Source: an uncultured Desulfarculaceae bacterium (lineage in GTDB: Bacteria; Desulfobacterota; Desulfocorpusculales; Desulfocorpusculum). Taken from it: a stretch of DNA of 64,000 nucleotides. Each line of letters begins with the position of its first letter. The first letter of the stretch is position 1. Below are positions 4,111-35,763 of this stretch, piece by piece. The notes under the pieces are model-generated. The model saw nothing but the letters and a program-made list of their open reading frames with translations, did no database searches and was not told where the DNA came from. The position numbers were made by a program, and so were the translations under genes. The stretch spans positions 34,448 to 98,447 of the forward strand of contig CAZEPJ010000001.1 of assembly GCA_964514105.1 (NCBI GenBank), in the 5' to 3' direction.

Positions 4111-6038
4111 TTCACTTCCTCGAAATCCGCGTCCACCACATCATCCCCGCCCTGGCCCCTGGAGGATCCAGCGCCGCCCGACGGCCCTCCGTGCGCCCCG
4201 CCCGCCTGGCTCTGCTGCTGGGAAGCCTTGGCGTACATGGCCTCGGCAAGCTTGTGGGAGGCGCTCTGGAGCTCTTCGGTGGCCCGTTTGATGGCGTCCG
4301 GGTCAGAGCCTTCCATGGCCCGGCGAAGGGCTTGGACGGCCGAGTCGATGCCCTGGCGATCCGCCGCGTCGATCTTGTCGGCGTGTTCCTTCAGGTTCTT
4401 CTCCGTGTGATAGATCATGTTGTCCGCGTTGTTTCGGGCTTCGGCCAACTGTCGCTTTCGCTTGTCCTCGTCCGCATGGGCCTGGCCCTCCCGGACCATC
4501 TTCTGGATCTCTTCCTCGCTCAGGCCCGAGGAAGCGGTGATCTTGATGGACTGCTCCTTGCCCGTGGCCTTGTCCTTGGCCGACACGTGGACGATGCCGT
4601 TGGCATCGATGTCGAAGGTCACCTCGATCTGGGGGATGCCCCGGGGAGCGGGCGGGATCCCCGTCAGATTGAATCGACCCAGTGTCTTGTTGTCCCCCGC
4701 CATCTCTCGCTCGCCCTGCAGGACGTGAATGGTGACCTCGGTCTGGCTGTCGGCCGCCGTGGAGAAGATCTCGCTCTTGCGGGTGGGAATGGTCGTGTTG
4801 CGCTCGATGAGCCGCGTGAACACCCCGCCCAGGGTCTCGATCCCCAGGGAAAGCGGCGTCACGTCCAGAAGCAGCACGTCCTTCACTTCCCCCTTGAGCA
4901 CCCCGGCTTGGATCGCGGCTCCCACCGCCACGACCTCATCCGGATTGACACCCTTGTTGGGCTCCTTGCCGAAGATCTCCTTGACCTTTTGCTGGACTCG
5001 GGGCATCCGGGTCATGCCTCCCACCAGGATCACCTCGTTGATGTCCGCTGGCCGAAGCCCTGCGTCCTTGAGGGCCTGGCGGCACGGTCCTTCGAGCTTG
5101 GCGATGAGGTCCTCCACCAGGGACTCCACCTTGGCCCGGGTGAGCTTGAGGTTGAGGTGTTTGGGCCCGCTGGCGTCCGCGGTGATGAAGGGGAGGTTGA
5201 CCTCGGTCTCCATGGAAGAGGAGAGCTCCATCTTGGCCTTTTCCGCGGCCTCCTTGAGCCTCTGGAGGGCCATTCGATCCTTGCGCAGATCGATCCCCTG
5301 GTCCTTCTTGAACTCGTCGGCCAGGTAATCGATGATTCGCAGGTCGAAGTCCTCACCGCCCAGATGGGTGTCGCCGTTGGTGGCCTTGACCTCGATGGAT
5401 TTCTCCCCTTCCACGTCCATGATGTCCAGGATGGAGATGTCGTACGTCCCCCCGCCCAGGTCGAAAACGGCGATCTTTTCATCCTTGTGGCGATCCATGC
5501 CATAGGCCAGGGATGCCGCCGTTGGCTCGTTGATGATGCGAAGCACATTGAGACCGGCGATTCTGCCGGCGTCCTTTGTGGCCTGGCGCTGGCTATCGTT
5601 GAAGTAGGCCGGCACAGTGATGACCGCCTCGGAGATGTTCTCCCCCAGGAAGTCATCGGCGGTCTGCTTCATCTTCTGGAGCACCATGGCGGAGATCTCC
5701 GGCGGAGAATAGCTCTTGCCCCGCACCTGAATGTGGGCATCGCCGTTGGCCGCCTTCACGATCTTGTACGGCAGGATCTTCAGATCCTTCTGGACCTCCG
5801 GGTCGTCGAACTTCCGCCCGATGAGCCGCTTCACCGCGTACAGCGTGTTTTCGGGGTTGGTGATGGCCTGGCGCCTGGCGATCTGGCCGACCAACCGCTC
5901 CCCACTTTCCGTAAAGGCCACTACCGACGGGGTGGTGCGCCCGCCCTCGGAGTTCGCTATGACCTTGGACTCGCCGCCCTCCATGATCGCCACGCAAGAG
6001 TTCGTCGTCCCCAAATCGATCCCGATGGCTCTCTTCAT
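4107..6038 (-). CDS. dnaK: Molecular chaperone DnaK (Hsp70)
   Basis: 643 aa. N-terminus [22 protein letters not shown] plus full-length Hsp70 signatures and an acidic C-terminal tail ending EEVK. Confidence 0.97.
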
Positions 6039-6093
6039 CCCTGGCTCCTCCGTTTTCCCAAGGCGCCGCTGGCTGCCTGGGAGGGGATTGCAA

Positions 6094-6696
6094 TCAGCTT
6101 CTCCTGGAGACCGCCACCTTGGAAGGTCTCAAAAGTCGGTCGTGCAACCGGTAGCCTCGCTCCATCTCCTGGACCACCATGTTTGGCTCATGCCCGGCGG
6201 AATCGACCTGCATGACGGCTTCGTGGAGCGCAGGATCAAACGGCTGATTCAATGCATCGATGGGCGTCACCCCAGCCCGCTCCAGAGCTGCGGCGAACTG
6301 CCTCTGGACCATGCGAACGCCCTCCAGCATCCCATCCTGAGCCTGGGGATTGTCCCCGTGATCCAGCGCGCGCCCCAGGTTGTCGAGAATGGGCAAGAGC
6401 TCCTTCAAGAGGCCCTCATGAGCGAACCTGGCGAGTTCCTCCCGCTCCCTCGCCGAGCGCTTCCTGTAGTTCTCCAGGTCCGCGGCCGCCCGCATCCAAC
6501 GATCCCGAAGCTGATCCGCCTCCTGCCGGGACTGCTCGATCTCTTTGCGAAGGGCCTCCAGCTCCTCCCGGAGCTTGGCGGCGCCCCGCCGCCCCCTCCT
6601 TCCCTCGTCCAAGGCGGCTTCGGATTCGCGCTTGTCTTCGTGGCCCTCCATGGACAGTCCCCTCGATCGTTCATGCGTTATTGCTGGAATTCCCAT
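6094..6696 (-). CDS. grpE: Nucleotide exchange factor GrpE
   Basis: Coiled-coil N-terminus and the GrpE signature [13 protein letters not shown]. It lies immediately upstream of dnaK in the same orientation. The exact start is uncertain (an alternative is the internal Met MEGHEDK). Confidence 0.85.
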
Positions 6697-6731
6697 AACT
6701 TAAATCGCATCGGGCGCCAAACGGCTTAATG

Positions 6732-6760
6732 GAACATAAGCACCTCCCACAACGTTGTCA
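6732..6760 (-). promoter_or_regulatory. Candidate sigma70-type promoter of grpE-dnaK
   Basis: Minus-strand TTGACA, 17 nt, then TATGTT, about 60 nt upstream of a GAGGGGA RBS and the grpE ATG. Confidence 0.4.
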
Positions 6761-15176: not shown

Positions 15177-15947
15177 GTGGCCGGTGTGGACGTGGGGCAC
15201 CAGACCGTGAAGGTGGTGGTCCTGGGGCGCGATGGGCTCCTGGGGCGGGGGATTTGGGCCTTGGCGGGATCCGTGGCCCACGCCGCGGAGGCCGGCCTGC
15301 GCAGGGCTGCGGCACAGGCCGGGGTGGAACGCGGGGCGGTGGAACGGATCTACGTCACGGGGGCTGGCAGAGACGGCGTGGTCATGGGCGACGGCCGTCC
15401 GACGGAGATGCTCTGCCACGTGCGGGGCGCCCACGCGGATCATCCCCGGGCCCGCACCGTCATGGACATGGGGGCCGAGGGGTTTCGGGTGCTCAGTTGC
15501 GATGCGGACGGCCACCTGACGGCCTTTGTCCTCAACGACAAGTGCGCGTCCGGAACCGGGGTCTTCCTGGAGACCGTGGCATCCATGCTTCGCGTCACGC
15601 TGGACGAGATGGGGCCCTTGTCCCTCCAGGCCGCGGGAAACTTGAGCCTGACGACGACCTGTGCCGTGTTCGCCGAATCGGAGATCGTGGCGGAGACCCA
15701 TCGGGGCACACCGCGGGAGGAGATCCTCTGGGCGGTTCACGATGCCATTGCCGCCAGGATCGTGGCCTTGAGCCAGCGGGTGGGGGTGACGCCGGATGTG
15801 GTCCTCACGGGGGGGGTGGCCAGGAACGTGGGGCTGGTGGCCGCTTTGGGACGCCGTTTGGGCCTCGATCCCTTCGTCCCCGAGGCCCCTGAGATGATGG
15901 GGGCACTGGGCGCGGCCTTGCTGGCCTGGGAGGACCGGACCCCATGA
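15177..15947 (+). CDS. HgdC/BcrAD/BadFG-type ATPase (CoA-substrate-specific enzyme activase), subunit 1
   Basis: The acetate/sugar-kinase-fold N-terminus VAGVDVGHQTVKVVVL, LNDKCASGTG and TTTCAVFAESE provide the two cluster-bridging Cys residues of HgdC-type activators. The start was inferred as an in-frame GTG, so the N-terminus is uncertain. Confidence 0.7.
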   Translation: MAGVDVGHQTVKVVVLGRDGLLGRGIWALAGSVAHAAEAGLRRAAAQAGVERGAVERIYVTGAGRDGVVMGDGRPTEMLCHVRGAHADHPRARTVMDMGAEGFRVLSCDADGHLTAFVLNDKCASGTGVFLETVASMLRVTLDEMGPLSLQAAGNLSLTTTCAVFAESEIVAETHRGTPREEILWAVHDAIAARIVALSQRVGVTPDVVLTGGVARNVGLVAALGRRLGLDPFVPEAPEMMGALGAALLAWEDRTP

Positions 15948-16735
15948 TCACCTGCGGCGTGGATGTGGGCTCCCTCTCGGCCGAGGCCGTGCTCCTCTCC
16001 GGGGAGGAGATCCTCTCGTACAGCGTGGTGCGGACCGGTCCGGACAGCGCCCGAACCGCCCATGAGGCCCTGGGCGAGGCGTTGCAAAGGGCCGGGGTCG
16101 TTCCGGGAGCGATTGACTACACCGTGGCGACGGGGTACGGACGGGTGGTGGTCCCCTTTGCCCAGCGGCACCTCTCGGAGATCACCTGCCACGCCAAGGG
16201 GGCCCATCATCTGTTCCCCCAGGTGCGGACGATCCTGGACATGGGCGGGCAGGACTGCAAGGCCGTCCGGTGCGATCCCCGGGGCAAGGTGACGGCCTTT
16301 CTCATGAACGACAAATGCGCGGCGGGGACGGGGAGGGCCCTGGAGGTGATCGCCGGCCTCATCCAAGTGCCTTTGGAGGAGATCGGGGCCCGGTCACTGG
16401 CCTTCGAAGGGAAGCCCGCCAGAATCAGCAACACCTGCGTGGTCTTCGCCAAGTCCGAAGTGCTGGCCCGGATGCGCGAGGGGGTCTCCACCGAGGAGAT
16501 CCTGGCAGCCCTGTGCGAGGGAGTGGCGGAGCGGGTGGCCGGACTCATCCGGCGGGTGGGGCTGGAGGAGGCCTTCGCCATCACCGGGGGCATCGCCAAG
16601 AACACCGGCGTGGTCCGCCGCATCGAGGGAATGCTCGGCGTTCAGGCCCTCATCGGCGCCGAGCCCCAGATCGTCGGGGCGCTGGGAGCCGCCCTGTTCG
16701 CACGGGAACTGCTTGGGAAGCGCGATTCGGCGTGA
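15944..16735 (+). CDS. HgdC/BcrAD/BadFG-type ATPase (activase), subunit 2
   Basis: Strong full-length similarity to the Acidaminococcus HgdC pattern (MITCGVDVGS..., MNDKCAAGTGRALE, SNTCVVFAKSEV, TGGIAKN). The ATGA overlap with the upstream gene suggests a heterodimeric activator. Confidence 0.85.
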   Translation: MITCGVDVGSLSAEAVLLSGEEILSYSVVRTGPDSARTAHEALGEALQRAGVVPGAIDYTVATGYGRVVVPFAQRHLSEITCHAKGAHHLFPQVRTILDMGGQDCKAVRCDPRGKVTAFLMNDKCAAGTGRALEVIAGLIQVPLEEIGARSLAFEGKPARISNTCVVFAKSEVLARMREGVSTEEILAALCEGVAERVAGLIRRVGLEEAFAITGGIAKNTGVVRRIEGMLGVQALIGAEPQIVGALGAALFARELLGKRDSA

Positions 16736-16878
16736 GCCCTTGCAGCCGAGGTCCCGCTGGCCCCATCACCGCGGTCACGTCCGTTGCGTTTGCTGGGTCT
16801 GTCTCGAGATCCGGTCCCCGGGGTCACGCCCCGGCGGATGGGCGTCCCAGTCCGACCACAGGGATTGGTTGGCCACCG

Positions 16879-19026
16879 ATGAGGGTGAAACTGGTATTCC
16901 CGCCGGGATTCCCGTTGGAGCAGCCTTATCCCAGCCTGCCGGCGCTGACGTCGTTCTTGTTGCAGAGAGGCGTGGAGGTCTCTCAGGCGGATCTGAACGT
17001 CGCGTCTTTCGACTTTCTCATGCGCCCTTCGTACCTCACCCGCTGCGCCCGGGAATTGGAGGGTGTGCTTGGGCGATGCAGGGGGCGGCGCTCTCTCGCC
17101 CAAGCGGACTACGGGCACTACTGGGCCATCTGCCGCGCCCTGCTCGCCGCGCCCGTGGTCATCCCGAACATACGAAAGGCCGTCCGGTTTTTCCGGACCT
17201 TGGACGGCTTCTCGGATCTCGACAGCTACATCCTCAACCGCCGCATAGTGGACGAGGCGCTGAACCTCGTTTCCGCACCCCATTATCCGGTCTCAGTCCC
17301 CCAAATCGGCTTCTCCAAGTACAGTTCCGCCCAGGCCTCAGGCGATATCCTTTCCGCCATCGCCGATCCCGTCCGGAATCCGTACCTTTCCTTTCTCGAA
17401 CGCTACGTGGGGGGACAACTGAAGGGTGAAGCCCCCGCGCTTGTCGGGATCTCCCTGGCGGGCCTGGGCCAAATCATTCCGGGCCTTGCTTTGGCCCGGC
17501 TGGTTCGGGAACAGATGCCCGCCACGAAGATCGTCGTGGGAGGATTCATCACCACCTTGCTGGCCGAGAAGATGAGGGCGATACCACCGCTGTTTCGGTT
17601 GTTCGACTACCTCATCCGATTCGAGGGCGAAACGCCGCTGCTGCGGTTGTGCCAGCATCTGGAAGGGGAGTGCCCCATCCAGGTGGTCCCCAACCTGCTC
17701 TACATGGATAGAGGGGGCGTAGAGGAGACGCGGCTGGGCCCGGTGGAGGACGTGAATGACCTCCCCACTCCGGTCTATGTGGGATTGCCGCTGGATCGGT
17801 ATCTCTCCCCCGTCCCGCTGCTGTCATTGGAGCCTGCGCGGGGGTGCTACTGGCGCAAGTGCACGTTCTGCAACCAGCATGCCGTACACCGGGGCACCTT
17901 CCGCGTTCGCGCGCCGGAGAAGACGGTTCTCGATATGAGACGCCTGCAGGAAAGATACGGGGCGAAATTCTTTTGCATCGTGAGTGAGGGTCTGCCGGCC
18001 AAGCAGTTGTCCCTGCTGGGAGAGGCCATCCTCGCGCACGGTTTGAACGTGCAGTGGTATGCGGGGGCTCGGCTGGAGAAGGGGTTCACGCGCAGGAGAC
18101 TGGAGGTGATTCGAAAGGCCGGATGCCGCAGGATCCTTTTCGGGCTGGAGTCCGGCAGTCAGAGGGTTCTGGATTTGATGCGGAAGGGGATCCGCCTGAG
18201 GGACGTGCCCAGCATCCTGGGTGCGTGCCGGCGTGCAGGCGTGGATGTCCACCTGTACCTGATGAGCGGCTTCCCCACGGAGTGCGCAGGGGAGGCCAAG
18301 CAAACGGCCGATTTCGTCGTCGAACAGCTGGGGCTGCTGGACCGGGACTGGTTTACCTTTTCCGTGAGCGTCTTCAGGGCCGCCATCGGTGCACCGATCT
18401 TGGAGGATCTGCCGCGGCTGGGCTACCGTCTTGTCTCCAAGGGACCCAAGTACGACCTGGAGTTCCTGTTCGAGCACGAGGTGGTCGATGGTCGGCTCCC
18501 CCATGGAGGGCGGCAAGAGCGTGAGCAGGCAGCGGAGGAGCTCGCTGCCAACATCCGCCGACACCTGCCCAAACCACGCTTTCCGCACGAGATGAGCCAC
18601 TGCTTGTGCTATCGTGTGCTTCCAGACGCGAGGCCCAGCGCTCTCGCTGCGGGGCAGGACGGGGCCCCCATGGACATGGACGCGCTGTCGCGCGATGGCT
18701 ATCGTTTCCGCCTCAGCCCTTGGGTCACGTTACGATCTGTCCAGGTCCCGCATGATGCGTCGGGACTGACCGACGCAGGCTCCGCCCGGCTCGTCCGTCA
18801 ACATGTGGCCTATGAGCTTCGGAGCGACAAATGCTACGGGCTGAGCAGGTCCGCGGTCGCTTTCTTGGAGCGTTTTCGCCGGCCGAGGAGCCTTGATGCC
18901 GTTCTGGGAGAGTGGCGCCGTCGATCCGCCGATGAGAAGAGCCTCAGGGAGGGCCTTCTGGGATTGGTGAGCAGGGGCCTCGTGGAGATCTCCGCTCCCA
19001 AGGACCGGGACGCGGAGCCCAAGTGA
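16879..19026 (+). CDS. B12-binding-domain radical SAM protein with a ~200-aa C-terminal extension
   Basis: The start is the internal Met (MRVKLVFPPGFPLEQPYPSLPALTSFLLQRGVEV), giving a cobalamin-binding N-domain. The radical SAM core has GCYWRKCTFCN, a Cx4Cx2C variant of the usual CxxxCxxC. The table ORF N-terminal 203 aa are low-complexity and overlap the activase gene. Confidence 0.65.
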   Translation: MRVKLVFPPGFPLEQPYPSLPALTSFLLQRGVEVSQADLNVASFDFLMRPSYLTRCARELEGVLGRCRGRRSLAQADYGHYWAICRALLAAPVVIPNIRKAVRFFRTLDGFSDLDSYILNRRIVDEALNLVSAPHYPVSVPQIGFSKYSSAQASGDILSAIADPVRNPYLSFLERYVGGQLKGEAPALVGISLAGLGQIIPGLALARLVREQMPATKIVVGGFITTLLAEKMRAIPPLFRLFDYLIRFEGETPLLRLCQHLEGECPIQVVPNLLYMDRGGVEETRLGPVEDVNDLPTPVYVGLPLDRYLSPVPLLSLEPARGCYWRKCTFCNQHAVHRGTFRVRAPEKTVLDMRRLQERYGAKFFCIVSEGLPAKQLSLLGEAILAHGLNVQWYAGARLEKGFTRRRLEVIRKAGCRRILFGLESGSQRVLDLMRKGIRLRDVPSILGACRRAGVDVHLYLMSGFPTECAGEAKQTADFVVEQLGLLDRDWFTFSVSVFRAAIGAPILEDLPRLGYRLVSKGPKYDLEFLFEHEVVDGRLPHGGRQEREQAAEELAANIRRHLPKPRFPHEMSHCLCYRVLPDARPSALAAGQDGAPMDMDALSRDGYRFRLSPWVTLRSVQVPHDASGLTDAGSARLVRQHVAYELRSDKCYGLSRSAVAFLERFRRPRSLDAVLGEWRRRSADEKSLREGLLGLVSRGLVEISAPKDRDAEPK

Positions 19027-19239
19027 TTGACGTTTGCCACAGGCGTCCAGGCAACCCGGACAATGCCCTCCATTGAAAGCTATGGATTTCCCTCCACGCT
19101 CTGTGAAGGAATGGATTCCTGTGTGGGCGATATTCCCGACTCCCCCCCTGGAGATGCCAGCGGCGTGTTTCCTGTCCCATGATCTCGCCCATCTCTCCAA
19201 AGCCGTCCGGGGGAGGCGGCAGTCTGTGCCGGGGGGGGG

Positions 19240-19359
19240 TCAACCCGACCGCATGGCCCACCGGACAGCGATCGCCAGGGCGCCCGCAGCGGTGAGCCCC
19301 CCCAGCCACAGCCCGGCAAACCAGACCCACTGCCTCCGGCGATCAGTAGGCCGTCTCAT
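19240..19359 (-). CDS. cydX: Candidate CydX-like small membrane peptide (39 aa)
   Basis: Absent from the ORF table because it is under 60 aa. MRRPTDRRRQWVWFAGLWLGGLTAAGALAIAVRWAMRSG is a single-TM peptide. Its ATG overlaps the last codons of cydB out of frame, the typical cydABX arrangement. Confidence 0.35.
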   Translation of the reverse strand: MRRPTDRRRQWVWFAGLWLGGLTAAGALAIAVRWAMRSG

Positions 19360-20362
19360 GGGAAGCCTTTCCTCGGAACAGGTAGTAGCAGTAGCCCGTG
19401 TAGCCCAGGACCACGGGCAGCAGGATGACCGTTCCCACCAGAAGCAGCGACTGGGATGGGGCTGCGGCGGCGGCCTGGCGGAAGGTCACCGCAAAGGGGA
19501 CGGAATAGGGCCACAGGCTGATGCCAAGTCCCAGATACGCCGTCAGGAAAACGCCGAAGCTCGAGAAAAACGGCCTGATCTCGCGACCTGCCTGCAAATC
19601 CCGCCAGATGAGAATGATCAGCACGAGGCTGGCCGTGGGAATGGGTATCAGGTAGAAGAGATTGGGGAGGGTCCACCACAGGGCGCGGATGGCGGGGTTC
19701 GTCAGGGGCATGCTGATGCTGACGATCGCCAGGAACAGGGCGACATAGCCGAGGGCGTAGGCCGCGCACTTGCGCGCCCATGCCTGGGTGACATCCTCGG
19801 TCTTCATGACCAGCCAGGTGGCTCCCAGCAGGGCGTAGCCGAAGACCAGCGCCGCGCCTGTCATCATGCTGTACGCGTTCAACCAGTCCAAGGAGCCTCC
19901 GGCGAAACGTCGACCCTCGACCGCCACCCCCTGCACCACCGCGCCGACGATGGCCCCCTGCATGAAGGCCGCGGTCAGTGAGCCGAAATGAAATGCGCGG
20001 TCCCACAACACCCTGGTTCGATCGGTGGCCTTGAAGCGGAACTCGAAGGCGACCCCTCTGAAGATCAGCCCGAGCAGCATGACGATGACCGGGATGTAGA
20101 GGGCGGGCATGAGGACGGCATACGCCAGCGGAAACGCGGCGAACAGGCCACCGCCGCCCAAGACCAGCCACGTCTCGTTTCCGTCCCAGAACGGCGCGAT
20201 GGAGTTCATCATCCGGTCCCGGCACTGATCCGAGGGAGCGAAGGGGAACAGGACGCCCACCCCCAGATCGAATCCGTCCAACAGGACGTAGAGGAACAGC
20301 GCCACGATGATGAGGGCGTGCCAGATGAGCGGCAGGTCCACTACGTGTTCCAAGCTAAACAT
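19343..20362 (-). CDS. cydB: Cytochrome bd ubiquinol oxidase subunit II
   Basis: The start was reset to MFSLEHVVDLPLIWHALIIVALFLYVLLDGFDLGVGVL, which aligns with the E. coli CydB N-terminus (MIDYEVLRFIWWLL...DGFDMGVGML). GGGGG lies 7 nt upstream. Confidence 0.85.
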   Translation of the reverse strand: MFSLEHVVDLPLIWHALIIVALFLYVLLDGFDLGVGVLFPFAPSDQCRDRMMNSIAPFWDGNETWLVLGGGGLFAAFPLAYAVLMPALYIPVIVMLLGLIFRGVAFEFRFKATDRTRVLWDRAFHFGSLTAAFMQGAIVGAVVQGVAVEGRRFAGGSLDWLNAYSMMTGAALVFGYALLGATWLVMKTEDVTQAWARKCAAYALGYVALFLAIVSISMPLTNPAIRALWWTLPNLFYLIPIPTASLVLIILIWRDLQAGREIRPFFSSFGVFLTAYLGLGISLWPYSVPFAVTFRQAAAAAPSQSLLLVGTVILLPVVLGYTGYCYYLFRGKASHETAY

Positions 20363-20457
20363 CTCATGCCCCCCATTGGCTTGGCAATCAGTGGCCCCGG
20401 GACGCTGGCGCCGGGCCTCGCCTCCGCTCCACCCCCAAAGACGCCAGCCCCCCGGGA

Positions 20458-21843
20458 TCACTCATGATGGACTTGAGCCGCGATCGCCGGTGCGGCGATT
20501 CCATGGTCTCCATAGGTCGGCTGATCCAGGACCGGCCCCTTGCCGATCAACCTCAGGATGTAGTAACTGCCCGCGCCGAACACGAACACATAGACGAAGA
20601 CGAATGCCAGAAGGGAGATGGCGATGGGACCCTCCGAGACCGGAGACGTGGCCTCGGCGGTCCTGAGAACGCCCTGGACGATGTACGGCTGGCGGCCCAT
20701 CTCCGTCACGATCCAGCCGGCCAGGACGGCCACGAACCCCGCGGGCGTCAGCGCCATACACCACAAATGAAACCACCGGGCATGGAAGAGCCGCTTTCGC
20801 AGGAACAGGATCACTGCCATGGCTCCGGAGGCGATCATCAACAGGCCCGTTCCCACCATGATGCGGAAGGACCAGAACACCCAGGCGACCGGGGGGCGCT
20901 CGTCTCTCGGCCATTGCTTCAGACCCTTGACCTCGCCATCCGGGTCGTGGGTGAGGATCAGGCTGGAGAGCTTGGGGATCTCGATGGCGTAACGGGTGAT
21001 CTCCTGGTCTTCATCGGGCCAGCCGAAAAGCACCAGCGGCGCGCCGTTTCGCGTCTGCCAGAGTCCCTCCATGGCCGACACCTTGGCGGGCTGGTGTTCC
21101 AGCGTGTTCAGGCCGTGCAGGTCGCCCAGAATCAGCTGGAGGGGCGCCACGAATACGGCCATGATCATGGCCATTCCGAACATCACCCGGGCGTGCGGGA
21201 CATGCCGCTTCCGCCACAGATAGAACGCACCGATTCCCCCCACGACAAAGGCCGTGGTGAGGTAGGCCGCCGTCACCATGTGGCTGAATCTGTACGGGAA
21301 GGACGGGTTGAAGATCACCTGCAACCAGTCGGTCGGGTAAAGCAGGCCGTCGGGGCCGGGGCGAAATCCCTGAGGGGTCTGCATCCAGCTGTTGGCCGAA
21401 AGGATCCAAAACGCCGATACCAGCGTGCCGGCGGCCACGATGACGGTGGCGGCGAAGTGCATCCCGGGGCTCACGCGATTCCAGCCGAACAACATGACGC
21501 CTAGAAAGGATGCCTCCAGAAAGAAGGCCGTGAGGACCTCGTACCCCAGCAGGGGACCGAGTACGTTTCCGGCCATGTCAGCGAAGAGCGACCAGTTGGT
21601 TCCGAACTGGAAGGAGAGCACGACCCCCGAGACCACCCCCATCCCGAAGGTCACCGCGAAGATCTTGACCCACATCCGGTAGATATCCGCATAGAGGGTG
21701 TTGCTGGTTCTCAACCAGCGCCATTCCAGCACGGCAAGCCAGCTTGCCAACCCGATGGTGAATGCGGGGAATACGATGTGGAATGAAACGGTGAACGCGA
21801 ACTGGATGCGCGCCAGGGTGAGGGCACTGAATGATTCCCACAT
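20458..21843 (-). CDS. cydA: Cytochrome bd ubiquinol oxidase subunit I
   Basis: The start was reset to MWESFSALTLARIQFAFTVSFHIVFPAFTIGLASWLAVLEW (CydA N-terminus) with an AGGTGA RBS. The Q-loop and heme-ligand regions are present. The 107-aa table extension is spurious. Confidence 0.9.
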   Translation of the reverse strand: MWESFSALTLARIQFAFTVSFHIVFPAFTIGLASWLAVLEWRWLRTSNTLYADIYRMWVKIFAVTFGMGVVSGVVLSFQFGTNWSLFADMAGNVLGPLLGYEVLTAFFLEASFLGVMLFGWNRVSPGMHFAATVIVAAGTLVSAFWILSANSWMQTPQGFRPGPDGLLYPTDWLQVIFNPSFPYRFSHMVTAAYLTTAFVVGGIGAFYLWRKRHVPHARVMFGMAMIMAVFVAPLQLILGDLHGLNTLEHQPAKVSAMEGLWQTRNGAPLVLFGWPDEDQEITRYAIEIPKLSSLILTHDPDGEVKGLKQWPRDERPPVAWVFWSFRIMVGTGLLMIASGAMAVILFLRKRLFHARWFHLWCMALTPAGFVAVLAGWIVTEMGRQPYIVQGVLRTAEATSPVSEGPIAISLLAFVFVYVFVFGAGSYYILRLIGKGPVLDQPTYGDHGIAAPAIAAQVHHE

Positions 21844-22018
21844 GGATTCACCTCGGGGGAGGAGCCTGTGCCGGCCCGGCCCTGTTGCCACCCCGCTGGT
21901 TCCGCATCGCCTCGAGCGAGGCCAGGTTCGCACAGGTGTCAGGCCGGCCCGCGCTGCCCCAGCCGGCCACCGCGCTTGCTCGTCGTCGGTGCGCCGCCGC
22001 CTTGGGTCCCGCCAATCC

Positions 22019-23116
22019 CTAGGCCAGGGACTCCAAGAAGGACTGAATCCGCACGTTGAGCTGCTCCATGGAGCTAGGGTTGTCCTCGGCCTCCAGCTTG
22101 AGATGGCGCACGCCCCAGGCATCGAAGCGCTCCTTGAGGATGGCGTACTCCATGGCGAAGGCATCGCAGTATAGCTGGATCAGATAGATCAACCCAGCGG
22201 CGCCACTTCGCGCCATGGCCTCCCGGATCCCCACGGCGCGCTCCTCGAACGCGTACATTCCGGGCGCCGGTACCCGCCGCAGATAGCCCCGGGCCAGGGC
22301 CCGGAAGGGGTCCCCGTCCGTATCGATGGGCGTCGAGCCATACCTCGCGTTGTGGGCGAAGTCGTCTGCCACCACCGAGGCCCCGTACTTCTCGGCCGTG
22401 CGGATCACGTCCAGGGCCATGTGGAGGTGGATGGCGCTCAGCATGAGCCGTGGGGATTCGTTCCTGGAGGGGAGGGGCTGCGCGGCATCCAGCAAGCGCC
22501 GCATGGCCGCGTTGTGCGCCTCCACGGGCATGACCAGGGCGGCCCCGAATGCGTAGAGTGCCTCCTGAGCCGAGATCCGACCGGCGGCCCGAGCTTCGGC
22601 CAGTTGGCGGAAACAGGCCCGATTGTCGTTGTACAAGGCGATGGACGCCCGCAGGCCCTCTTCCGTGACGGAGTTTCCCGAGAGCCGCGACAGGGCTCCG
22701 GCCAGGCGCCGCATCTCCTCGGTGAAATAGCCCAGGGCCGCATCGCCAGCCGTGGTGGGTGTCCTCACCAGCCAGAGATGGGGGAAGAGCTTGCGGTGGG
22801 CCCAGATGTCGAAGACGTGGCGGTTGGTGTCGCACACCGTGGCCACCATTACCCCATCCACGTAGTCGTACACCCCGCTGTACAACTGCCCGGCCAGGTT
22901 CTTGCTCATGCCGCACAGGTAAGGCAGGAGCTGGGAGCGCTCGTCGTATGCGGGGTTGCGTTCCTCCACCAACTGGACGGGAAGCATCCCGGCCGCATGA
23001 ATCAACTCCTTGGGGACCAGCCCGTAGAAGCAGGCGACGACCTTGCGCCCCCCTTCATGGATCTCCCGGCACCGCTGGTGCCTGTCCAGGAACCATTCCT
23101 TGAACTGGGATGTCAC
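22019..23116 (-). CDS. 2-hydroxyacyl-CoA dehydratase / benzoyl-CoA reductase BcrBC-type (HGD-D family) subunit
   Basis: GTG start preceded by GGAGG. HgdA/HgdB-like fold with conserved Cys clusters (VVACFYG..., VATVCDTNRH). The table ORF N-terminal 147 aa are spurious. Confidence 0.65.
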   Translation of the reverse strand: MTSQFKEWFLDRHQRCREIHEGGRKVVACFYGLVPKELIHAAGMLPVQLVEERNPAYDERSQLLPYLCGMSKNLAGQLYSGVYDYVDGVMVATVCDTNRHVFDIWAHRKLFPHLWLVRTPTTAGDAALGYFTEEMRRLAGALSRLSGNSVTEEGLRASIALYNDNRACFRQLAEARAAGRISAQEALYAFGAALVMPVEAHNAAMRRLLDAAQPLPSRNESPRLMLSAIHLHMALDVIRTAEKYGASVVADDFAHNARYGSTPIDTDGDPFRALARGYLRRVPAPGMYAFEERAVGIREAMARSGAAGLIYLIQLYCDAFAMEYAILKERFDAWGVRHLKLEAEDNPSSMEQLNVRIQSFLESLA

Positions 23117-24372
23117 GGACGGCCTCCTTCCTGCTTCCTGCGCCGCTCCAGGATCTCCACAAAACCGTCGATCTTGTTCTTGGCGTCCTGCATGTTGAAT
23201 CCCTCGGCATCGGCCTGATCTCCCTCGAAGATGAGCACCGGCAGGCCGTGCTTCTCCCGGATCATCTGGACCACCTCGTCCTGCCCGATGGACTGGGGAC
23301 GGCAGCTCCGGTTGGAAAACATGACCAGGCCATCCACCTCGTACTCCCCAATGGCGCGGTCGAAGTACTCGAATCGTCGCGCAATGGGCATGTTGGTCAG
23401 GACGTTGGTGTACTTCTCGGCCAGGGTCTGGAACGGCCTTTCGGGATCGAGCCTGCCCGACCGGGTCTTGTTCCCCCAGCTCAGGGCCGTGTAAGGTTCC
23501 CAGACGAAGTTGGCCCCTTTCTCCTCGAAGTACGTGATCACCTGGAGGTGGTGCCAAATGGGGATCCCGTTCCAGATGAGGCGGAAGCGCTCCCCGCCCT
23601 GGGCCGGAGTCTTGCCCTGCTGCGCCTCCTCCTCGTACCGCCGCCGCAGGGCCTGATAGAAGTCCGCACAGTCCTTCTCCCCCAGTGCGGTCACCAGGGG
23701 GAGGATCTCCCCGGCGAAGTTCCGGAAGCTCACGGGCGAGGGCCTTCGCTTGCGCAGCTCCAGGATCGCCTTCCAGTGAACTCCCGCGAGGTCCGACTGG
23801 CGCACCGCCTCCCGGAGTCTCTCCAGGTCAAAAACACGGTTGGTGTGCCTTTCGATGAAACGGACCATCTCGTGGATCTGTGTCTCGTAGTAGGCCACGT
23901 AGCCGGGATCCCATGGATCATCGGTGGCGGGCATGTCCACGAAGAAGGTGGGTTTCTTGAAGCGGTCTTCCAGATAGGCCCACCAGGTGACGTGGAGGCA
24001 GCAGATGCTCACGTCGGTCATGAAGAGATCGGGCTCGGGTATGGGGCCGAAGGCCGACTTGTTGGTCCAGGCGATGCCCAGCCCGCAGCGGGTGTACGAA
24101 CAGACGGAATTGGAGAAACCGCGGTCCCGGGCGGCGTCGAAGAACTCGTCGGCCTTGCGGATCCCCGCGGCCACCGCGGCCAGGCTCTCGGGAAACACCG
24201 GGTACACGTCCATGGCATAGAGGACCTCGATGGGCACCGCCGCACTGGCCACACAGATGGGCTGCCCAGCCTCGTGGGCGGCGAGCATCCTGCGATAGGA
24301 CGCCCCGGCGCTGAGCTTCTTCAGCATGGTCCTCAGGTCGACCGGTTCCCCAACGCTTTCCGCTTGATTCAT
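23113..24372 (-). CDS. 2-hydroxyacyl-CoA dehydratase / BcrBC-type (HGD-D family) subunit, partner of the downstream gene
   Basis: Internal ATG (MNQAESVGEPVDLRTMLKK) preceded by GGAGGG. It is an HGD-D family protein, and its stop overlaps the start of the next subunit (23113-23116). Confidence 0.65.
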   Translation of the reverse strand: MNQAESVGEPVDLRTMLKKLSAGASYRRMLAAHEAGQPICVASAAVPIEVLYAMDVYPVFPESLAAVAAGIRKADEFFDAARDRGFSNSVCSYTRCGLGIAWTNKSAFGPIPEPDLFMTDVSICCLHVTWWAYLEDRFKKPTFFVDMPATDDPWDPGYVAYYETQIHEMVRFIERHTNRVFDLERLREAVRQSDLAGVHWKAILELRKRRPSPVSFRNFAGEILPLVTALGEKDCADFYQALRRRYEEEAQQGKTPAQGGERFRLIWNGIPIWHHLQVITYFEEKGANFVWEPYTALSWGNKTRSGRLDPERPFQTLAEKYTNVLTNMPIARRFEYFDRAIGEYEVDGLVMFSNRSCRPQSIGQDEVVQMIREKHGLPVLIFEGDQADAEGFNMQDAKNKIDGFVEILERRRKQEGGRP

Positions 24373-24513: not shown

Positions 24514-25782
24514 ATGCCGTTGACAGCGACCCCGGAATTGTGGAAAGCTCTCTGTGCCGGTTCCAACGATGGGGTCAGAAGGGTTCGGCCATCCGTGTAC
24601 CTCACCTCCTTCATCCACCGAGAGACCCTGTTCGAGATCACCCAGCGGTGGCTTTGCGGCCGCTTGGAACCGGACGACGCCCGACGGATCACGGAGATCC
24701 TCATCTGCGATGGTTTCGTCCTGGGCGAGGTCCTGGGGGACGTGGCCAAATCCCTGCTGGGCATGGTCCATCAAGGGAGCCTCCACGCCCGGAACATCCG
24801 GCTCAAGGGGGAGATGCGGGATGCCATCTGCCAAACCGGCTGCGGGGGCGTCCCCCGGGTCTCTCAACTGATCCGGCGCTATCGGGAGAAGCCCGACTTC
24901 TTTTACCGGGAGGCCCCCATCAACGGGGTCATGTACCTCAACCATGGCCAGCGGCTTGTGGGTCTGCACCGTGTGAAGAGGCCCCGCAGAATCGCCGAGA
25001 AGGCCAACCGGTATCTTGCCAACTGGATCTTCGGGATGGTCCAGGACAGGGCCCGAGGGCTGGCCACGGCCCGGGCCCGGGCATTTGGGATCCCCGTGGA
25101 GGACCTGCTGACCTCCGCGGAGGACATGGCACGGGAATTCATTCAGGCCGAGGAGGCCATCACGGAGGGCTTCCGCCAGGGGGCCATCGGGCTCGATCGC
25201 ACGGCCCTGACCATTCATGACGTGGGAGGGGTGAAGGTGGTGGCCGAACCGGAGGGGCTCCATGCCTTGGAGGAACGACTGTCGGCGCATCCCATCTATG
25301 GGGTGCGGGGGCGGGAGAGCCACCGCGGCGACTACCAGGCCACGAGCCTGATCCTGGAGGTCCCGTGGGACCGGCAGTCCGTGTGCCGGAAGTTCACGGC
25401 GTGCCGATGCTGGGAGCGCTATCGAAACCGGGGGATCCCTGATGAGGATCTGGATCGGGGCCTGGAGCCCTTGCTGGGAGACGCAGCGCCCACGGTGAAC
25501 ATCGAGGTGATCCTGTCCACCTTTGCGGATATGGTGGAGTCGGAGCTGGGGAACAGCATCCATGAGGAGCGGATCCTCTCCCAGAGGGACACCCGGGTGT
25601 ACCGCGGTTACATCCCCACCAACGTGGAGTTCCTGGTCGAGTACCTCTTCGCGGTGGGATTCAGCCCGACGGCGCAGGTGGACGAACTTCCCATCAAGCT
25701 GTGGGGCCGATACCTGCCGGACACGGTCATCTCGCAGATCCGACACCTCCATGGGGTGCCCGAATCGGAGATTCTCTGCTGA
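24514..25782 (+). CDS. RelA/SpoT-domain (RSD) nucleotidyltransferase with an N-terminal domain of unknown function
   Basis: Ordered RSD synthetase motifs: RVKRPRRIAEK (G/RxKxxxSIxxK-like), HDVGGVKVV (DxxGxRI-like), GDYQATSLILEV (GYQSLHT-like), and EVILSTFADMVESELGNSIHE (EVQIRT...MH..AE.G-like). 422 aa. Confidence 0.5.
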   Translation: MPLTATPELWKALCAGSNDGVRRVRPSVYLTSFIHRETLFEITQRWLCGRLEPDDARRITEILICDGFVLGEVLGDVAKSLLGMVHQGSLHARNIRLKGEMRDAICQTGCGGVPRVSQLIRRYREKPDFFYREAPINGVMYLNHGQRLVGLHRVKRPRRIAEKANRYLANWIFGMVQDRARGLATARARAFGIPVEDLLTSAEDMAREFIQAEEAITEGFRQGAIGLDRTALTIHDVGGVKVVAEPEGLHALEERLSAHPIYGVRGRESHRGDYQATSLILEVPWDRQSVCRKFTACRCWERYRNRGIPDEDLDRGLEPLLGDAAPTVNIEVILSTFADMVESELGNSIHEERILSQRDTRVYRGYIPTNVEFLVEYLFAVGFSPTAQVDELPIKLWGRYLPDTVISQIRHLHGVPESEILC

Positions 25783-25882: not shown

Positions 25883-27397
25883 GTGGCGGGGCAAGGGAAG
25901 GCAGAGGGCGGCGATGCCCACGGCAGGGGTGGCCGCCGTCGGCGCCGGAAACGGGTTGGGGCGCGCGGGGGCGGGGCAGACCTGCAGGACGTCGAGCGGC
26001 TCATTGCCGAGGCGGTCCGGAAGAGCTTCGGCGAGGCCTTCGGCTTTGGGCAGGCTCTGTCCAGGCCGGTGCCGCTGCGGCTGGACATGGTGGTCGAGCC
26101 GGGGCCCCACTGGCGGCTCCGTGCCGACCCGCCGTTGAGCCAGCAGATCCTGGCGGCGGTGCGGGAGACGGGAGCCCGGGCCGAGGCCCATCGCAGGGGT
26201 CGGGTGTATTGCTATCGGTGCGAGAGCGCCGAGTGCCTCCACAGCCTGCCCCCCACGCCGACGGCCGTCTTCGGCGGGTATACCCCCACGGGGCTTCCCC
26301 GCTGGCCGGAGCTGACCCAACTGCTCCTGGACTTGAGGCACCCGGGGGTCGATCTGCTGTTCGAGGCACAGGGCTTGGCCTGGGTGGCGGCCTGCATGGG
26401 CCCCGAGCGCCTCAAGTCCGCCCAGCTGGACGTGTTCGGGCGCAGCTCCAAGGCGTATGACATCCTGGGACAGGTGGTGGTGGGGTTTCTCCGGGCGCGG
26501 GATCCGGAGCCAACACGGGACGACACCGGGCGGGTCGCCCTCACCATCCAGGCGGTGGAATCGCGCCGCCTGGATGGCTCACCCAGACTGGATCTCAACA
26601 TCCTGGGGCCGCCGGGGGGCGGCGCTTCCCCCCTGGGGATCCTCCACCACGGCCCGCACCACGGCCGCGTGGCAGATCTCATCGCCCAGGCCAGCCGGCG
26701 GATCCAGCAACTGGCCCCCCAGCCTCCCCGGGGGGGTGGAGTCCGGGAGGGCAAAGGGATGCCGTCCGTGGTGGCAGAGCGGGCTCTGGGCGTCCTGAGG
26801 GAACTTGCCCGAGGGTTGGAGCGCATCGGGAGGCAGAGCGGGAGGCGGACGGCCCACGTGGTGAGGGAACGGCGGGGGGATCAACGACCCACTTCCAAGG
26901 CCCGGGACGACGCGGAGGCCGCCACCGAAGAGCGAGTGCTGTGGGATGAACGCCGGGGCACGTTCATCGTCCTGGGCCCGAGGAACCGCGTGCATGTCTT
27001 CAGCCCCCAGGGGCGGCATGTGACCAGCCTCCTTCTGGAGGGCGATGCGGTGGAGGGCCGGCTGCGCCGCCGGCGCTGGCGCAGGCTCAAGGGCCAGGCC
27101 GTGGAGCAATTCAGGGCGGCCCTGGCTCGCGGGGAGGAGGGGGGCCGGCCCGGTCCGAGGGTGACCCACGGGAGGGGGGGCACGGGAGGCGATGGCACCC
27201 GAGTCACCCATGGGGAGGGAGAGGGGCATGCGGAGTCGAGAGGCGGGCAGGGTGAACCACCGGATCTGGTACCTGGGCCGGGAGGAGTCGGGGGTCTATC
27301 TGGTGGAAGGGCGGGAGGGGTCCATGATCCTCAACGGAGGCATGAGCTACATCGTCCCCGACGTTCTGGGTCAAATGGCGGAGTTCGGCATCGATGA
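25883..27397 (+). CDS. Hypothetical protein co-oriented with the RSD gene; both ends uncertain
   Basis: GC3-rich frame with plausible protein sequence (DLQDVERLIAEAVRKSFGEAFGFGQALSRPVPLRL..., CYRCESAEC). A GGGAGGAG RBS precedes an in-frame GTG at 25883. The frame has no stop until 27397, overlapping the MBL gene by about 170 nt with a low-complexity tail, so the true C-terminus may differ or there is a frameshift. Confidence 0.3.
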   Translation: MAGQGKAEGGDAHGRGGRRRRRKRVGARGGGADLQDVERLIAEAVRKSFGEAFGFGQALSRPVPLRLDMVVEPGPHWRLRADPPLSQQILAAVRETGARAEAHRRGRVYCYRCESAECLHSLPPTPTAVFGGYTPTGLPRWPELTQLLLDLRHPGVDLLFEAQGLAWVAACMGPERLKSAQLDVFGRSSKAYDILGQVVVGFLRARDPEPTRDDTGRVALTIQAVESRRLDGSPRLDLNILGPPGGGASPLGILHHGPHHGRVADLIAQASRRIQQLAPQPPRGGGVREGKGMPSVVAERALGVLRELARGLERIGRQSGRRTAHVVRERRGDQRPTSKARDDAEAATEERVLWDERRGTFIVLGPRNRVHVFSPQGRHVTSLLLEGDAVEGRLRRRRWRRLKGQAVEQFRAALARGEEGGRPGPRVTHGRGGTGGDGTRVTHGEGEGHAESRGGQGEPPDLVPGPGGVGGLSGGRAGGVHDPQRRHELHRPRRSGSNGGVRHR

Positions 27398-28127
27398 GGG
27401 GACCATCCGATGGCTGACCGTGCTGCACGCCCACTTCGACCACGTGGGGGTGGTCCCGTTCTTCAAACGGAGGCTTCCGGAGGTCAAGGTCCTGGCCTCG
27501 GCTCGGGCTTGGGAGCTGTTGGAATCGCCCAAGGTTGTGGACACGGTCAATTCCTTCAGCGCCGTGGTGGCGCAGCGCATGGGCCGAGCCCCAGCGTGCG
27601 CCGGCCTCGATCTGGCGTGGCGGGACGACGTGAGAGGGGCAGCCGTGGGAGAGGGAGATGAAATCAGCCTGGGCGACCTGACGGTGCGCTTTCTGGAGAC
27701 GCCTGGCCATTCCTCGTGCTCCATCTCGGCGTACGTGCCCGAGCTGCGGGCCCTGTTCCCATCGGATGGCGGAGGCATCCCGTACAGAGACACCATCATC
27801 ACTTCCGGCAATTCCGACTACACCCAGTTCCAGCGCAGCCTGGAGCGTCTGGCGGGCCTTCCGGTGGATTATTACTGCGCGGACCACTACGGATTTGTGA
27901 CCGGGGAGGAGGCCGGTGCCTTCGCCCGACGGGCAGCCGACGTGGCGGCCAAGTGGCGAGGGTTCATGGAGGGGGTGTACCGGAGGACCCGGGATGTGGA
28001 TGAGTCCGCCAGGAAGCTCACCGCGGCCTTCTACCATGAGAACCCCGACTATATCCTGTCGCCAGAGATCTTCGAAGGGGTGTTCCGCCAGATGGTGCGG
28101 CACATCGCCAGGGGTCTGGAGGCGTGA
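27228..28127 (+). CDS. Metallo-beta-lactamase-fold hydrolase
   Basis: The HAHFDHVG (HxHxDH) motif follows the beta-strands YLVEG....MILNGG. GGGGAGGGAGAGGGG lies upstream of the ATG at 27228. Confidence 0.7.
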   Translation: MRSREAGRVNHRIWYLGREESGVYLVEGREGSMILNGGMSYIVPDVLGQMAEFGIDEGTIRWLTVLHAHFDHVGVVPFFKRRLPEVKVLASARAWELLESPKVVDTVNSFSAVVAQRMGRAPACAGLDLAWRDDVRGAAVGEGDEISLGDLTVRFLETPGHSSCSISAYVPELRALFPSDGGGIPYRDTIITSGNSDYTQFQRSLERLAGLPVDYYCADHYGFVTGEEAGAFARRAADVAAKWRGFMEGVYRRTRDVDESARKLTAAFYHENPDYILSPEIFEGVFRQMVRHIARGLEA

Positions 28128-28169: not shown

Positions 28170-28679
28170 ATGACCATGAACGGACACAGAAGGGCGAGGA
28201 TGGAGATTCCGGAGTACGTGACCGTGGGCGAGGTGAGGCGGATCTGCCGCATGTTGGGGATCCGGGACTGGACCAGGCTGAAGCAGCCCCGGGTGACCGC
28301 GCAGGAGGCCAAGGCGATTCTGGCCGCGGTGGGAACCGGAGGGATGAAGGTCGATCTGGAGGAGTTCCGCATCGGGCTGGAGGTGGAGCTGGAGCACGGC
28401 ACGCGATTTCCCGAAGCCAACGTGACCAACAACCATCCGCTTCTGACGGGCAAGATCGTCCTGGCCCATTTCAAGGAGACCTTGGATTACTACAAGCGGC
28501 TGGAGGTGGCGGAGATCGAAGGAGATCTGCTCAAGGCCTCGGCGAGAGAGGACGCGGCCAAGGTGCAGCGCCTGTACCAAAAGCTCATCTGCGCGCGCCG
28601 GGCCCTGAGCACGGCGGAGGTGTGGCAGTTGTCCCGAAAACCGCGTGCCCCCCTTGACAAGGCCGGATCGGGTTCTTAA
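28170..28679 (+). CDS. Small conserved hypothetical protein (possibly DUF5661-like)
   Basis: 169 aa. The motif GLEVELEHG...[28 protein letters not shown] was recalled only as resembling a DUF family; there are no catalytic signatures. Confidence 0.4.
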
Positions 28680-28791
28680 TTACTTTCTGTTTCCATTGCC
28701 CAGGAAAGAGCCGAGAAGGCCGAGGGACCGGCCCCGGACCTGGGCGGCTTGCGGTTTCACGGAGGGGAGTTCCCCTGAGGAAGGGCGGGGA

Positions 28792-28849
28792 GAGTCTTGT
28801 ACGGCTTTTTTCGGACCCGTCGCGTTGGCGACGAGAAGACTCGAGGAGG
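28792..28849 (+). promoter_or_regulatory. Nested hairpin in the groES 5' leader abutting the Shine-Dalgarno
   Basis: Outer 7-bp inverted repeat GAGTCTT...AAGACTC encloses the perfect CGTCGC-gttg-GCGACG hairpin. The 3' arm abuts GAGGAGG and the groES ATG at 28859. No CIRCE element is present. Confidence 0.35.
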
Positions 28850-28858
28850 TACGGTTCC

Positions 28859-30821
<1,963 letters not shown>

Positions 30822-35747: not shown

Positions 35748-35763
35748 GGGGGGGCGTTCCTCC

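Follow-up and report, generated by a model that had tools for sequence, protein, structure and literature searches.

To our knowledge, few reactions are known for ATP-driven [4Fe–4S] radical enzymes: the dearomatization of aryl-CoA esters, carried out by benzoyl-CoA reductases (BCR), and the dehydration of 2-hydroxyacyl-CoA esters, carried out by 2-hydroxyacyl-CoA dehydratases (HAD), beside which stand the orphan double-cubane cluster proteins (DCCP). The crystal-structure paper on BzdNO (PMC11971306), our reference for cofactor sites, gives Cys95, Cys128 and Cys380 of BzdO as the ligands of the catalytic aqua-[4Fe–4S] cluster, and Cys36, Cys73, Cys100, Cys263, Cys293 and Cys327 of BzdN as the six ligands of an [8Fe–9S] double cubane; HADs, according to the same paper, use a single activator. 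The stretch of DNA analysed here (the window, 64 000 nucleotides of contig CAZEPJ010000001.1 from an uncultured Desulfarculaceae bacterium) carries genes for two proteins of the HGD-D family, alpha and beta, and for two HgdC-type ATPases, C1 and C2 (genes hgdC1 and hgdC2). Between the two pairs lie a radical S-adenosylmethionine (SAM) gene and the cytochrome bd oxidase genes cydA and cydB (table 1). The four enzyme genes form one cassette that is conserved across several phyla of uncultured bacteria. It is likely that they encode an uncharacterized ATP-driven radical enzyme of the BCR/HAD family acting on a CoA thioester, and that the link with the oxidase is incidental.

Related loci were collected in three sets, 22 from contigs of one genome per species, 59 from metagenome contigs and several through exact-protein look-ups, about 80 in total (L001, L005, etc. 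below). According to the record titles, the 22 genome loci come from Desulfarculaceae (80–81% identity), Desulfobacterales, Syntrophaceae, Rokuibacteriota, Methylomirabilota, Betaproteobacteria and Nitrospinota. There are more than 100 close relatives of alpha, mostly 56–81% identical to it and a few down to 50%, after which identity falls sharply to 35%; all those with an organism label are from metagenome-assembled genomes (MAGs), and the remainder are unlabelled metagenome contigs. Alpha and beta come first in the related loci and are followed, on the other strand, by C2 and C1; the two halves thus point towards each other, as they also do in the window, a feature that the initial annotation does not mention. 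Between the stops of beta and C2 there are 5–300 nt in 14 of the 16 genome loci with enough flank, and the same direct convergence is seen in 22 of 38 metagenome loci and in further contigs. Every locus that has ATPases has both C1 and C2. The proposal made in the initial annotation of the window, that both ATPases and both HGD-D proteins make up one Bcr-like four-subunit system, is thus supported by their conservation together as a single cassette in other genomes.

The two halves are 5.3 kb apart in the window. Inserts of 4–6 kb at the beta/C2 junction occur in four other loci (L011 and the metagenome loci L054, L055 and L068). The genes recognizable in these inserts are confined to two of them and are unrelated to the enzyme: GroEL (5092–6735) and a transporter of the major facilitator superfamily type in L068, and an FAD-type oxidoreductase and a permease in L011. 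Beta begins with GTG (V-I/T-x-x-F-K/R) in 20 of 23 related loci, a conserved non-ATG start that in many cases overlaps the alpha stop or lies directly against it.

The components of the superfamily are all present: two PF06050 subunits (229.6 bits for alpha and 229.5 for beta; gathering cut-off 28.4), the three Cys of the catalytic cluster, and ASKHA-type ATPases with two Cys per monomer. However, no cassette protein reaches any NCBIfam equivalog cut-off (0 of 4). The scores are 120, 137 and 301 bits for BzdN, BzdO and BzdQ (cut-offs 454, 449 and 380), 182 and 118 bits for HadB and HadC (cut-offs 750 and 700), and 81 and 141 bits for double_cubane (cut-off 350), of which the second is the top match of beta. 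Among solved chains in the Protein Data Bank (PDB), alpha matches HadB (144 bits), BzdO (131) and MbdO (98), and beta matches BzdN (115 bits), HadC (101) and MbdN (81). A profile search of 1.84 billion cluster representatives (50% clustering) returned one full-length representative of the clade at 779 bits, the next sequence at 345 bits and then a continuum, with the HadB cluster at 208 bits; identity between the clade and any other 50% cluster does not exceed 35%. In a distance tree, a crude neighbour-joining one with partial reference sequences, the clade is monophyletic and sister to small uncharacterized groups, outside the groups of HadB, BzdO and MbdO. The HGD-D proteins thus do not cluster with a characterized dehydratase or reductase; tight clustering with a dehydratase would have spoken against the initial annotation. 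The clade is one of several hundred uncharacterized branches of a superfamily that counts 545 representatives at E up to 1e-30, and our literature search returned no usable report on it.

In alpha, C91, C124 and C357 align with the three cluster ligands of BzdO, and E62, Y93 and H127 with BzdO Glu65, Tyr97 and His131. All six residues are invariant in 20 family members. Of 155 superfamily representatives, at least 154 have the three ligand Cys. Almost all members of the superfamily share the Cys, the Glu and the Tyr, which therefore say nothing about the subtype. His127 was considered as a marker of reductases and rejected: MbdO, a true reductase, has Phe at this position, and His is found there in 40 of the 155 representatives. 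The position of BzdO Gln274 is Ile in alpha, and Ser43 stands where BzdO has Trp46. Two other Cys of alpha, C96 (24087–24085, minus strand; invariant in the clade) and C40 (24255–24253, minus strand; at least 90% conserved), are absent from HadB, BzdO and MbdO and occur in 32 and 16 of the 155 representatives, respectively. They were considered as distal-cubane ligands, but the profile–profile alignment of alpha and beta is ambiguous by two to five residues and no cluster is claimed for them; they might act as an extra ligand or as a redox pair.

The Cys of beta follow a different pattern from those of BzdN. Three of them, C68, C95 and C317, do not vary in the family and a fourth, C29, is conserved to at least 90%, but Ala is found at the positions of BzdN Cys263 and Cys293. 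Since two of the six double-cubane ligand positions are occupied by Ala, a single cluster of the HadC type is expected in beta, and no double cubane. The DCCP-like enzyme that had been put forward as one candidate is excluded, as beta lacks the two Cys and alpha and beta are distinct. The predicted cluster complement of the whole enzyme would be three clusters of the [4Fe–4S] type, including the one bridging the ATPases, as in a HAD with its activator and, judging from the Cys pattern of MbdN, in 3-methylbenzoyl-CoA reductase.

Both ATPases match PF01869 and both have the two bridging Cys reported in the initial annotation: C123 and C162 in C1, C125 and C165 in C2, invariant across 14 family members and aligned with the corresponding Cys of HadI and MbdQ. 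C1 and C2 are about 37% identical and are likely to be partners in a heterodimer. The BzdQ model is the top NCBIfam match of C2, above the generic activase model (229 bits); HadI, MbdQ and an outgroup activase score 182–202 bits with the BzdQ model and have the generic model as their top match. Among solved chains, C1 scores 194 bits with MbdQ, 180 with HadI and 105 with MbdP, and C2 scores 238 bits with MbdQ and 205 with HadI. The nearest outgroup (35% identity) has a single ATPase gene, co-directional. By these comparisons the ATPase module appears to lean towards the BCR type. BZD-type modules are predicted to associate just transiently (PMC11971306), in keeping with transcription units that in the cassette are separate and convergent and at times unlinked. 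C1 has an invariant His in its phosphate-binding motif 1 (D-x-G-H; residue 8, 15198–15200) where HadI and MbdQ have Ser, so that the two ATP sites of the heterodimer are probably not equivalent.

The genes of the window give no clue to the substrate. As had been noted, no CoA ligase, CoA transferase or acyl-CoA dehydrogenase gene lies nearby; there is none within 35 kb, the sole CoA-related genes of the window being at 59.7–62.2 kb; genes of this kind accompany the cassette only in other genomes, and the earlier view that the substrate cannot be assigned from the window holds. Genes for acyl-CoA dehydrogenases, AMP-ligases, family III CoA-transferases, 4HBT thioesterases or enoyl-CoA hydratases are found in the flanks of 23 of 51 loci. 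Their density reaches 1.12 per 10 kb in the 1.5 kb nearest the cassette and is 0.37–0.47 per 10 kb further out. This enrichment supports a CoA-thioester substrate.

The arrangements are diverse, and those of L088, L041, L063 and L033 look like operons that include the HGD-D pair. An AMP-forming ligase (Acs/MbcS-like) lies 64 nt upstream and co-oriented in L063 (1742–8000), where a family III CoA-transferase follows C1. A zinc-dependent alcohol dehydrogenase, a pyridoxal-phosphate (PLP) decarboxylase, alpha, beta, an amidohydrolase and a family III CoA-transferase are encoded on one strand in L088 (3986–11460) and in L041; in L088 there is also a radical SAM gene resembling glycyl-radical activases, 3 kb away. 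Acyl-CoA dehydrogenase genes are located upstream in L033 and L038 and 4HBT thioesterase genes downstream in L033, L034 and L038, an AcrC-like dehydrogenase and the thioesterase of L033 (421–6714) forming an apparent operon with the HGD-D pair. Dehydrogenases are found at either end of the cassette in L006, L018, L020, L027 and L057, those of L020 and L057 being AliB-like. All these acyl-CoA neighbours score below their equivalog cut-offs. Nor do they tell reduction and dehydration apart: HAD pathways would be in keeping with the AcrC-like dehydrogenases and family III transferases, alicyclic or aromatic routes with the AliB-like dehydrogenases.

We propose that C1 and the BzdQ-like C2 form a heterodimer that would share a bridging [4Fe–4S] cluster, as their conserved Cys suggest, and would accept an electron from some donor of low potential. 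The binding and hydrolysis of ATP would push this electron into the alpha/beta dimer, from the C1/C2 bridging cluster through the single HadC-type [4Fe–4S] cluster of beta to that of alpha, a putative three-Cys [4Fe–4S] cluster with an open iron site beside Glu62, Tyr93 and His127. There the electron would produce a ketyl-type radical from the acyl- or aryl-CoA thioester bound at the site. What we prefer as the outcome, and give about an even chance, is a net reduction as in BCR, with stoichiometric consumption of ATP; elimination of water as in HAD, with ATP needed in catalytic amounts, appears less probable, and some other outcome would account for the rest; these odds are drawn from the conserved residues and the neighbouring genes.

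A HAD-type enzyme with a heterodimeric activator, passing its enoyl-CoA product to a neighbouring acyl-CoA dehydrogenase, is accordingly a possible, though not the favoured, identity of the cassette. HadB is the best model of alpha both in NCBIfam (182 bits, as compared with 150 for BcrB and 137 for BzdO) and in the PDB, the Cys pattern of beta is exactly that of HadC, and AcrC-like dehydrogenases, family III CoA-transferases, PLP decarboxylases and aminotransferases adjoin the cassette in other genomes, the first two being typical of HAD pathways as well. Several other observations join these in weighing against our interpretation: His127 is not diagnostic for a reductase, some of the contigs behind the neighbour enrichment are redundant, genes for ferredoxin, dienoyl-CoA hydratase or a ring hydrolase are missing from the surroundings of the cassette, and every known member derives from MAGs or metagenomes. 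In addition, no ATPase gene is present in the available flank (1.4–8 kb) of 13 of 38 metagenome loci (e.g. L033, L034, L064 and L088), and the same is true of L004/L019. Because about one-third of the loci have none there, linkage of the ATPases to the HGD-D pair is not obligatory; in these cases the activator genes may be unlinked, a more extreme split than that of the window. A dehydratase is nevertheless disfavoured by the two paralogous ATPase genes kept throughout the clade, where the characterized HADs named here (PMC11971306) and the nearest outgroup use one, by the specific resemblance of C2 to BzdQ, by the hosts, which are respiring or syntrophic anaerobes and not amino-acid fermenters, and by scores that are all far under the equivalog cut-offs, including those of HadB and HadC. 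An ordinary class I benzoyl-CoA reductase for anaerobic aromatic degradation is very unlikely. It would account for the four-subunit architecture with a BzdQ-like ATPase, for the conserved BzdO ligands with Glu, Tyr and His, and for the name BcrC/BadD/HgdB that source databases give to the cassette enzyme, but all four proteins are well under the Bcr/Bzd cut-offs, alpha is only 25–29% identical to BzdO and MbdO, beta lacks BzdN double-cubane Cys, BzdO Gln274 is replaced by Ile, and no dch/had/oah-type genes, ferredoxin or benzoate-CoA ligase accompany the cassette in the window. More speculatively, and with a rather low probability, the cassette might represent a fourth functional type of the BCR/HAD family, combining a BzdPQ-like ATPase with HAD-like clusters (two single [4Fe–4S]), that would catalyse an undescribed radical reduction or elimination on acyl-CoA derived from amino acids or short chains in respiring and syntrophic anaerobes of several phyla, the cyd genes perhaps having been captured into its transcription unit in this one lineage as local oxygen protection.

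The cyd genes and the radical SAM gene are lineage-specific inserts. Neither cydA nor cydB nor the radical SAM gene is present within 8–10 kb in any of the approximately 80 related loci. In Desulfarculaceae MAGs with 80–81% alpha identity, both flanks are common with the window (a metallo-beta-lactamase (MBL)-fold gene and a protein of about 400 aa on one side; the small secreted protein sec141, PilZ and p408 on the other), the 5.3-kb insert is missing and the cassette is contiguous. The synteny comparison called for in the initial annotation thus separates the cassette, which is kept, from the cyd and radical SAM genes, which are not. The base composition of the insert is the same as that of its flanks, no tRNA genes mark it, and a search for flanking repeats (16600–22200) found just short ones at chance level.

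The initial annotation suggested that cydABX may be co-expressed with the HGD-D pair, which may be stated as a selected operon whose high-affinity oxidase scavenges O2 for an oxygen-labile radical enzyme. We consider this improbable. The genes are indeed co-oriented, the gap between the beta stop and cydA is exactly the 175 nt described, and another assembly of this organism is arranged in the same way; genes related to stress or O2 lie near (an MBL protein resembling the oxygen-binding di-iron protein (ODP) family, GroES/EL, DnaK and Lon). The proposed check of the gap found neither terminator nor promoter by consensus scan, a method that is weak for this high-GC, non-enterobacterial genome; no FNR box above chance was found in the spacer, and RNA folding of both spacers revealed no unusual structure. 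Since no terminator or promoter was found, transcription from the HGD-D pair may read through into cydA, which is a point against a purely incidental link. However, no related locus carries cydAB, including the 80%-identical Desulfarculaceae with the same flanks, and the junction holds other, unrelated genes in other lineages. The link to cyd is therefore specific to this lineage and fails by the yardstick of co-conservation that the initial annotation set, and the adjacency is probably an accident of gene order in one Desulfarculaceae-like lineage and not a conserved functional unit. It is even harder to believe that the ATPase pair has been recruited in this genome by the B12-radical SAM enzyme encoded behind it, whose cobalamin or cluster it might, for instance, reactivate reductively with ATP. 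The radical SAM gene does begin 143 nt downstream of hgdC2, co-oriented, and metallo-ATPases that reductively activate corrinoid proteins at the expense of ATP are a known class (PMC7317905). But the gene is found in no other cassette locus, its homologs are located in unrelated contexts without HGD-D, cyd or HgdC-type genes, and its own affinities point to the modification of peptides.

Indeed, the inserted radical SAM enzyme is probably peptide-modifying, as judged from its relatives. Its best NCBIfam matches are two families concerned with ribosomally synthesized and post-translationally modified peptides (RiPPs), ApyD (115 bits; cut-off 750) and rSAM_ocin_1/TIGR03975 (107 bits; cut-off 282), and the B12-binding domain PF02310 is on record for most of its homologs. 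A PqqD-like domain ends the C-terminal extension in the homologs P0207 and P0178 (residues 649–713) and is weak in the 53%-identical P0123. A direct Pfam search of the C-terminus of the window protein (18376–19026) found no PqqD or other domain, and the pairwise alignment is weak (E 0.024); a PqqD-like domain of the RiPP-recognition type is probable there. The small open reading frames (ORFs) around the gene, looked at as candidate precursor peptides, share no similarity with those beside the homologs. The canonical radical SAM motif is Cx3Cx2C. In the window protein it is CYWRKCTFC, that is, the Cx4Cx2C noted before as unusual, but CYW[RHSE][KR]C[TAS]FC is found in 120 of 120 homologs and is a family trait, universal in the broad subfamily to which the protein belongs, not a peculiarity of this gene. 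The C-terminal extension noted with it is present and is also common to the homologs of about 700 aa (98–99% coverage).

Gene models were chosen by start-codon context, third-position G + C (the window has 65% G + C) and family matches (table 1). Those of alpha, beta, cydA and the radical SAM protein match recorded proteins of a 237-kb NCBI contig residue for residue. The genes hgdC1 and hgdC2 overlap by 4 nt (ATGA), and the HGD-D pair is located as the initial annotation placed it, the alpha stop overlapping the beta start in GTGA. The cyd genes, which had been described as 'fused' to this pair, are adjacent to it without gene fusion.

Table 1. Features of the cassette and its insert in the window (E-values are for Pfam matches).
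Feature	Position	Strand	Remarks
hgdC1, divergent HgdC/BcrAD-type ATPase subunit (C1), 256 aa	15177–15947	+	GTG start; PF01869 E 6e-44; TIGR00241 197 bits
hgdC2, BzdQ-like HgdC-type ATPase subunit (C2), 263 aa	15944–16735	+	PF01869 E 8e-54; top NCBIfam match BzdQ, 301 bits
B12-binding-type radical SAM protein, 715 aa	16879–19026	+	PF04055 E 2e-15 (57.6 bits); B12-binding 21.5 bits, below cut-off 32.1
cydX-like ORF, 39 codons	19240–19359	-	17-nt overlap with cydB end; one hydrophobic helix
cydB, cytochrome bd oxidase subunit II, 339 aa	19343–20362	-	PF02322 E 8e-94; TIGR00203 166 bits (cut-off 117)
cydA, cytochrome bd oxidase subunit I, 461 aa	20458–21843	-	PF01654 E 8e-170; identical recorded protein annotated subunit I
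Spacer, beta stop to cydA start, 175 nt	21844–22018	-	no consensus promoter/terminator; fold z-score 0.65; no FNR-like site
HGD-D beta, predicted electron-transfer subunit, 365 aa	22019–23116	-	PF06050 E 1e-67; HadC-like single-cluster Cys set
HGD-D alpha, predicted catalytic subunit, 419 aa	23113–24372	-	PF06050 E 1e-67; BzdO-type Cys ligands

The CydA and CydB domains of a bd oxidase operon are both present, and cydAB encode an ordinary bd oxidase. Of the cydA-cydB-cydX series reported earlier, the first two genes are established by Pfam. The third is the cydX-like ORF, which is in the expected place, is preceded by a Shine–Dalgarno-like GAGGA and has G or C in most third positions of its codons. 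Pfam gives no match to it at E up to 1; it is a plausible candidate for CydX.

An ORF of 422 aa (24514–25782, plus strand), divergent from alpha and without a Pfam match, is missing from the otherwise syntenic Desulfarculaceae loci and is therefore a third lineage-specific insertion at this locus. Further on this side of the cassette are the protein of about 400 aa (approx. 25990–27397, plus strand), without a Pfam match, and the MBL-fold protein (27192–28127, plus strand), with its near-threshold match to the ODP family. Both are kept beside the cassette in all the Desulfarculaceae loci (L001, L005, L008, L074 and L076) and not in other lineages. GroES/GroEL are encoded at 28658–30821, 4 kb from alpha; together with the GroEL gene between beta and C2 in L068, this makes two occurrences in about 60 loci, which may be due to chance. 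The window also codes for an aldehyde:ferredoxin oxidoreductase (33918–35954, minus strand), a LarA-N-like protein (43173–44504, minus strand) and, at 41301–43118 (minus strand) and 49561–51102 (plus strand), sugar-acid dehydratases with tripartite tricarboxylate transporters of the TctA/TctC type and ABC transporters, all unrelated to the cassette. Scans of the whole window for Rfam families (gathering threshold) and tRNA genes gave no matches.

The clade spans lineages labelled Thermodesulfobacteriota, Rokubacteria/Methylomirabilota, Betaproteobacteria and Nitrospinota (50–81% identity to the window protein), with no cultured or characterized member. Metagenome pipelines routinely label it 'benzoyl-CoA reductase/2-hydroxyglutaryl-CoA dehydratase', which can inflate claims of anaerobic aromatic degradation, and caution is needed before this annotation is read as benzoate metabolism. 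As a clade of its own, in which BCR and HAD traits are mixed, it is a defined target for heterologous expression. Its lasting interest lies in the cassette itself, in which a BzdQ-like heterodimeric ATPase appears to be combined with a HAD-like cluster complement; the split and the adjacency to cyd are probably incidental.

Among known systems, the radical SAM protein is closest to the class B radical SAM RiPP maturases (ApyD and TIGR03975), with which it shares a B12-binding-like N-terminal half, a radical SAM core and, in its relatives, a PqqD-like C-terminus; it differs in scores far below the cut-offs, in its Cx4Cx2C motif and in having no identified precursor gene. The cassette belongs to the same superfamily as DCCP and its ATPase (PDB 6ENO and 7YYL), and double_cubane is the top NCBIfam model of beta. 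However, the two subunits of DCCP are identical, each with six Cys for its [8Fe–9S] cluster, and its ATPase is likewise a homodimer; the cassette has two distinct subunits, both with an incomplete Cys set and below the double_cubane cut-off. (R)-2-Hydroxyisocaproyl-CoA dehydratase HadBC with its activator HadI (PDB 3O3M and 4EHT) is the top solved relative of alpha, beta has the four-Cys pattern of HadC, and acyl-CoA dehydrogenase and family III CoA-transferase genes are neighbours in some cassette genomes. The differences are 26% identity, two ATPase genes in place of one homodimeric activator, hosts other than fermenting clostridia, and Val in HadB at the position aligned with cassette His127 (Ala according to PMC11971306).

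BzdNOPQ of Aromatoleum sp. CIB (PDB 8S02; PMC11971306) resembles the cassette in its catalytic heterodimer and its heterodimeric HgdC-type ATPase from two paralogous genes, in the alpha ligands with Glu, Tyr and His, and in providing the best model of C2. It differs in that alpha is about 29% identical, the equivalog cut-offs are missed, the six double-cubane Cys are incomplete in beta (Ala at Cys263 and Cys293), Gln274 is not kept and no aromatic-pathway genes lie near. The 3-methylbenzoyl-CoA reductase MbdONQP (PDB 9G87 and 9GAI) is more distant in its catalytic subunit, with 25% identity to alpha (98 bits) and Phe in MbdO at the His127 position, and C1 scores higher with MbdQ (194 bits) than with MbdP (105 bits). 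It is nevertheless a four-subunit ATP-dependent reductase, its MbdN also lacks the extra double-cubane Cys, and both cassette ATPases score best with MbdQ among solved chains (238 and 194 bits).

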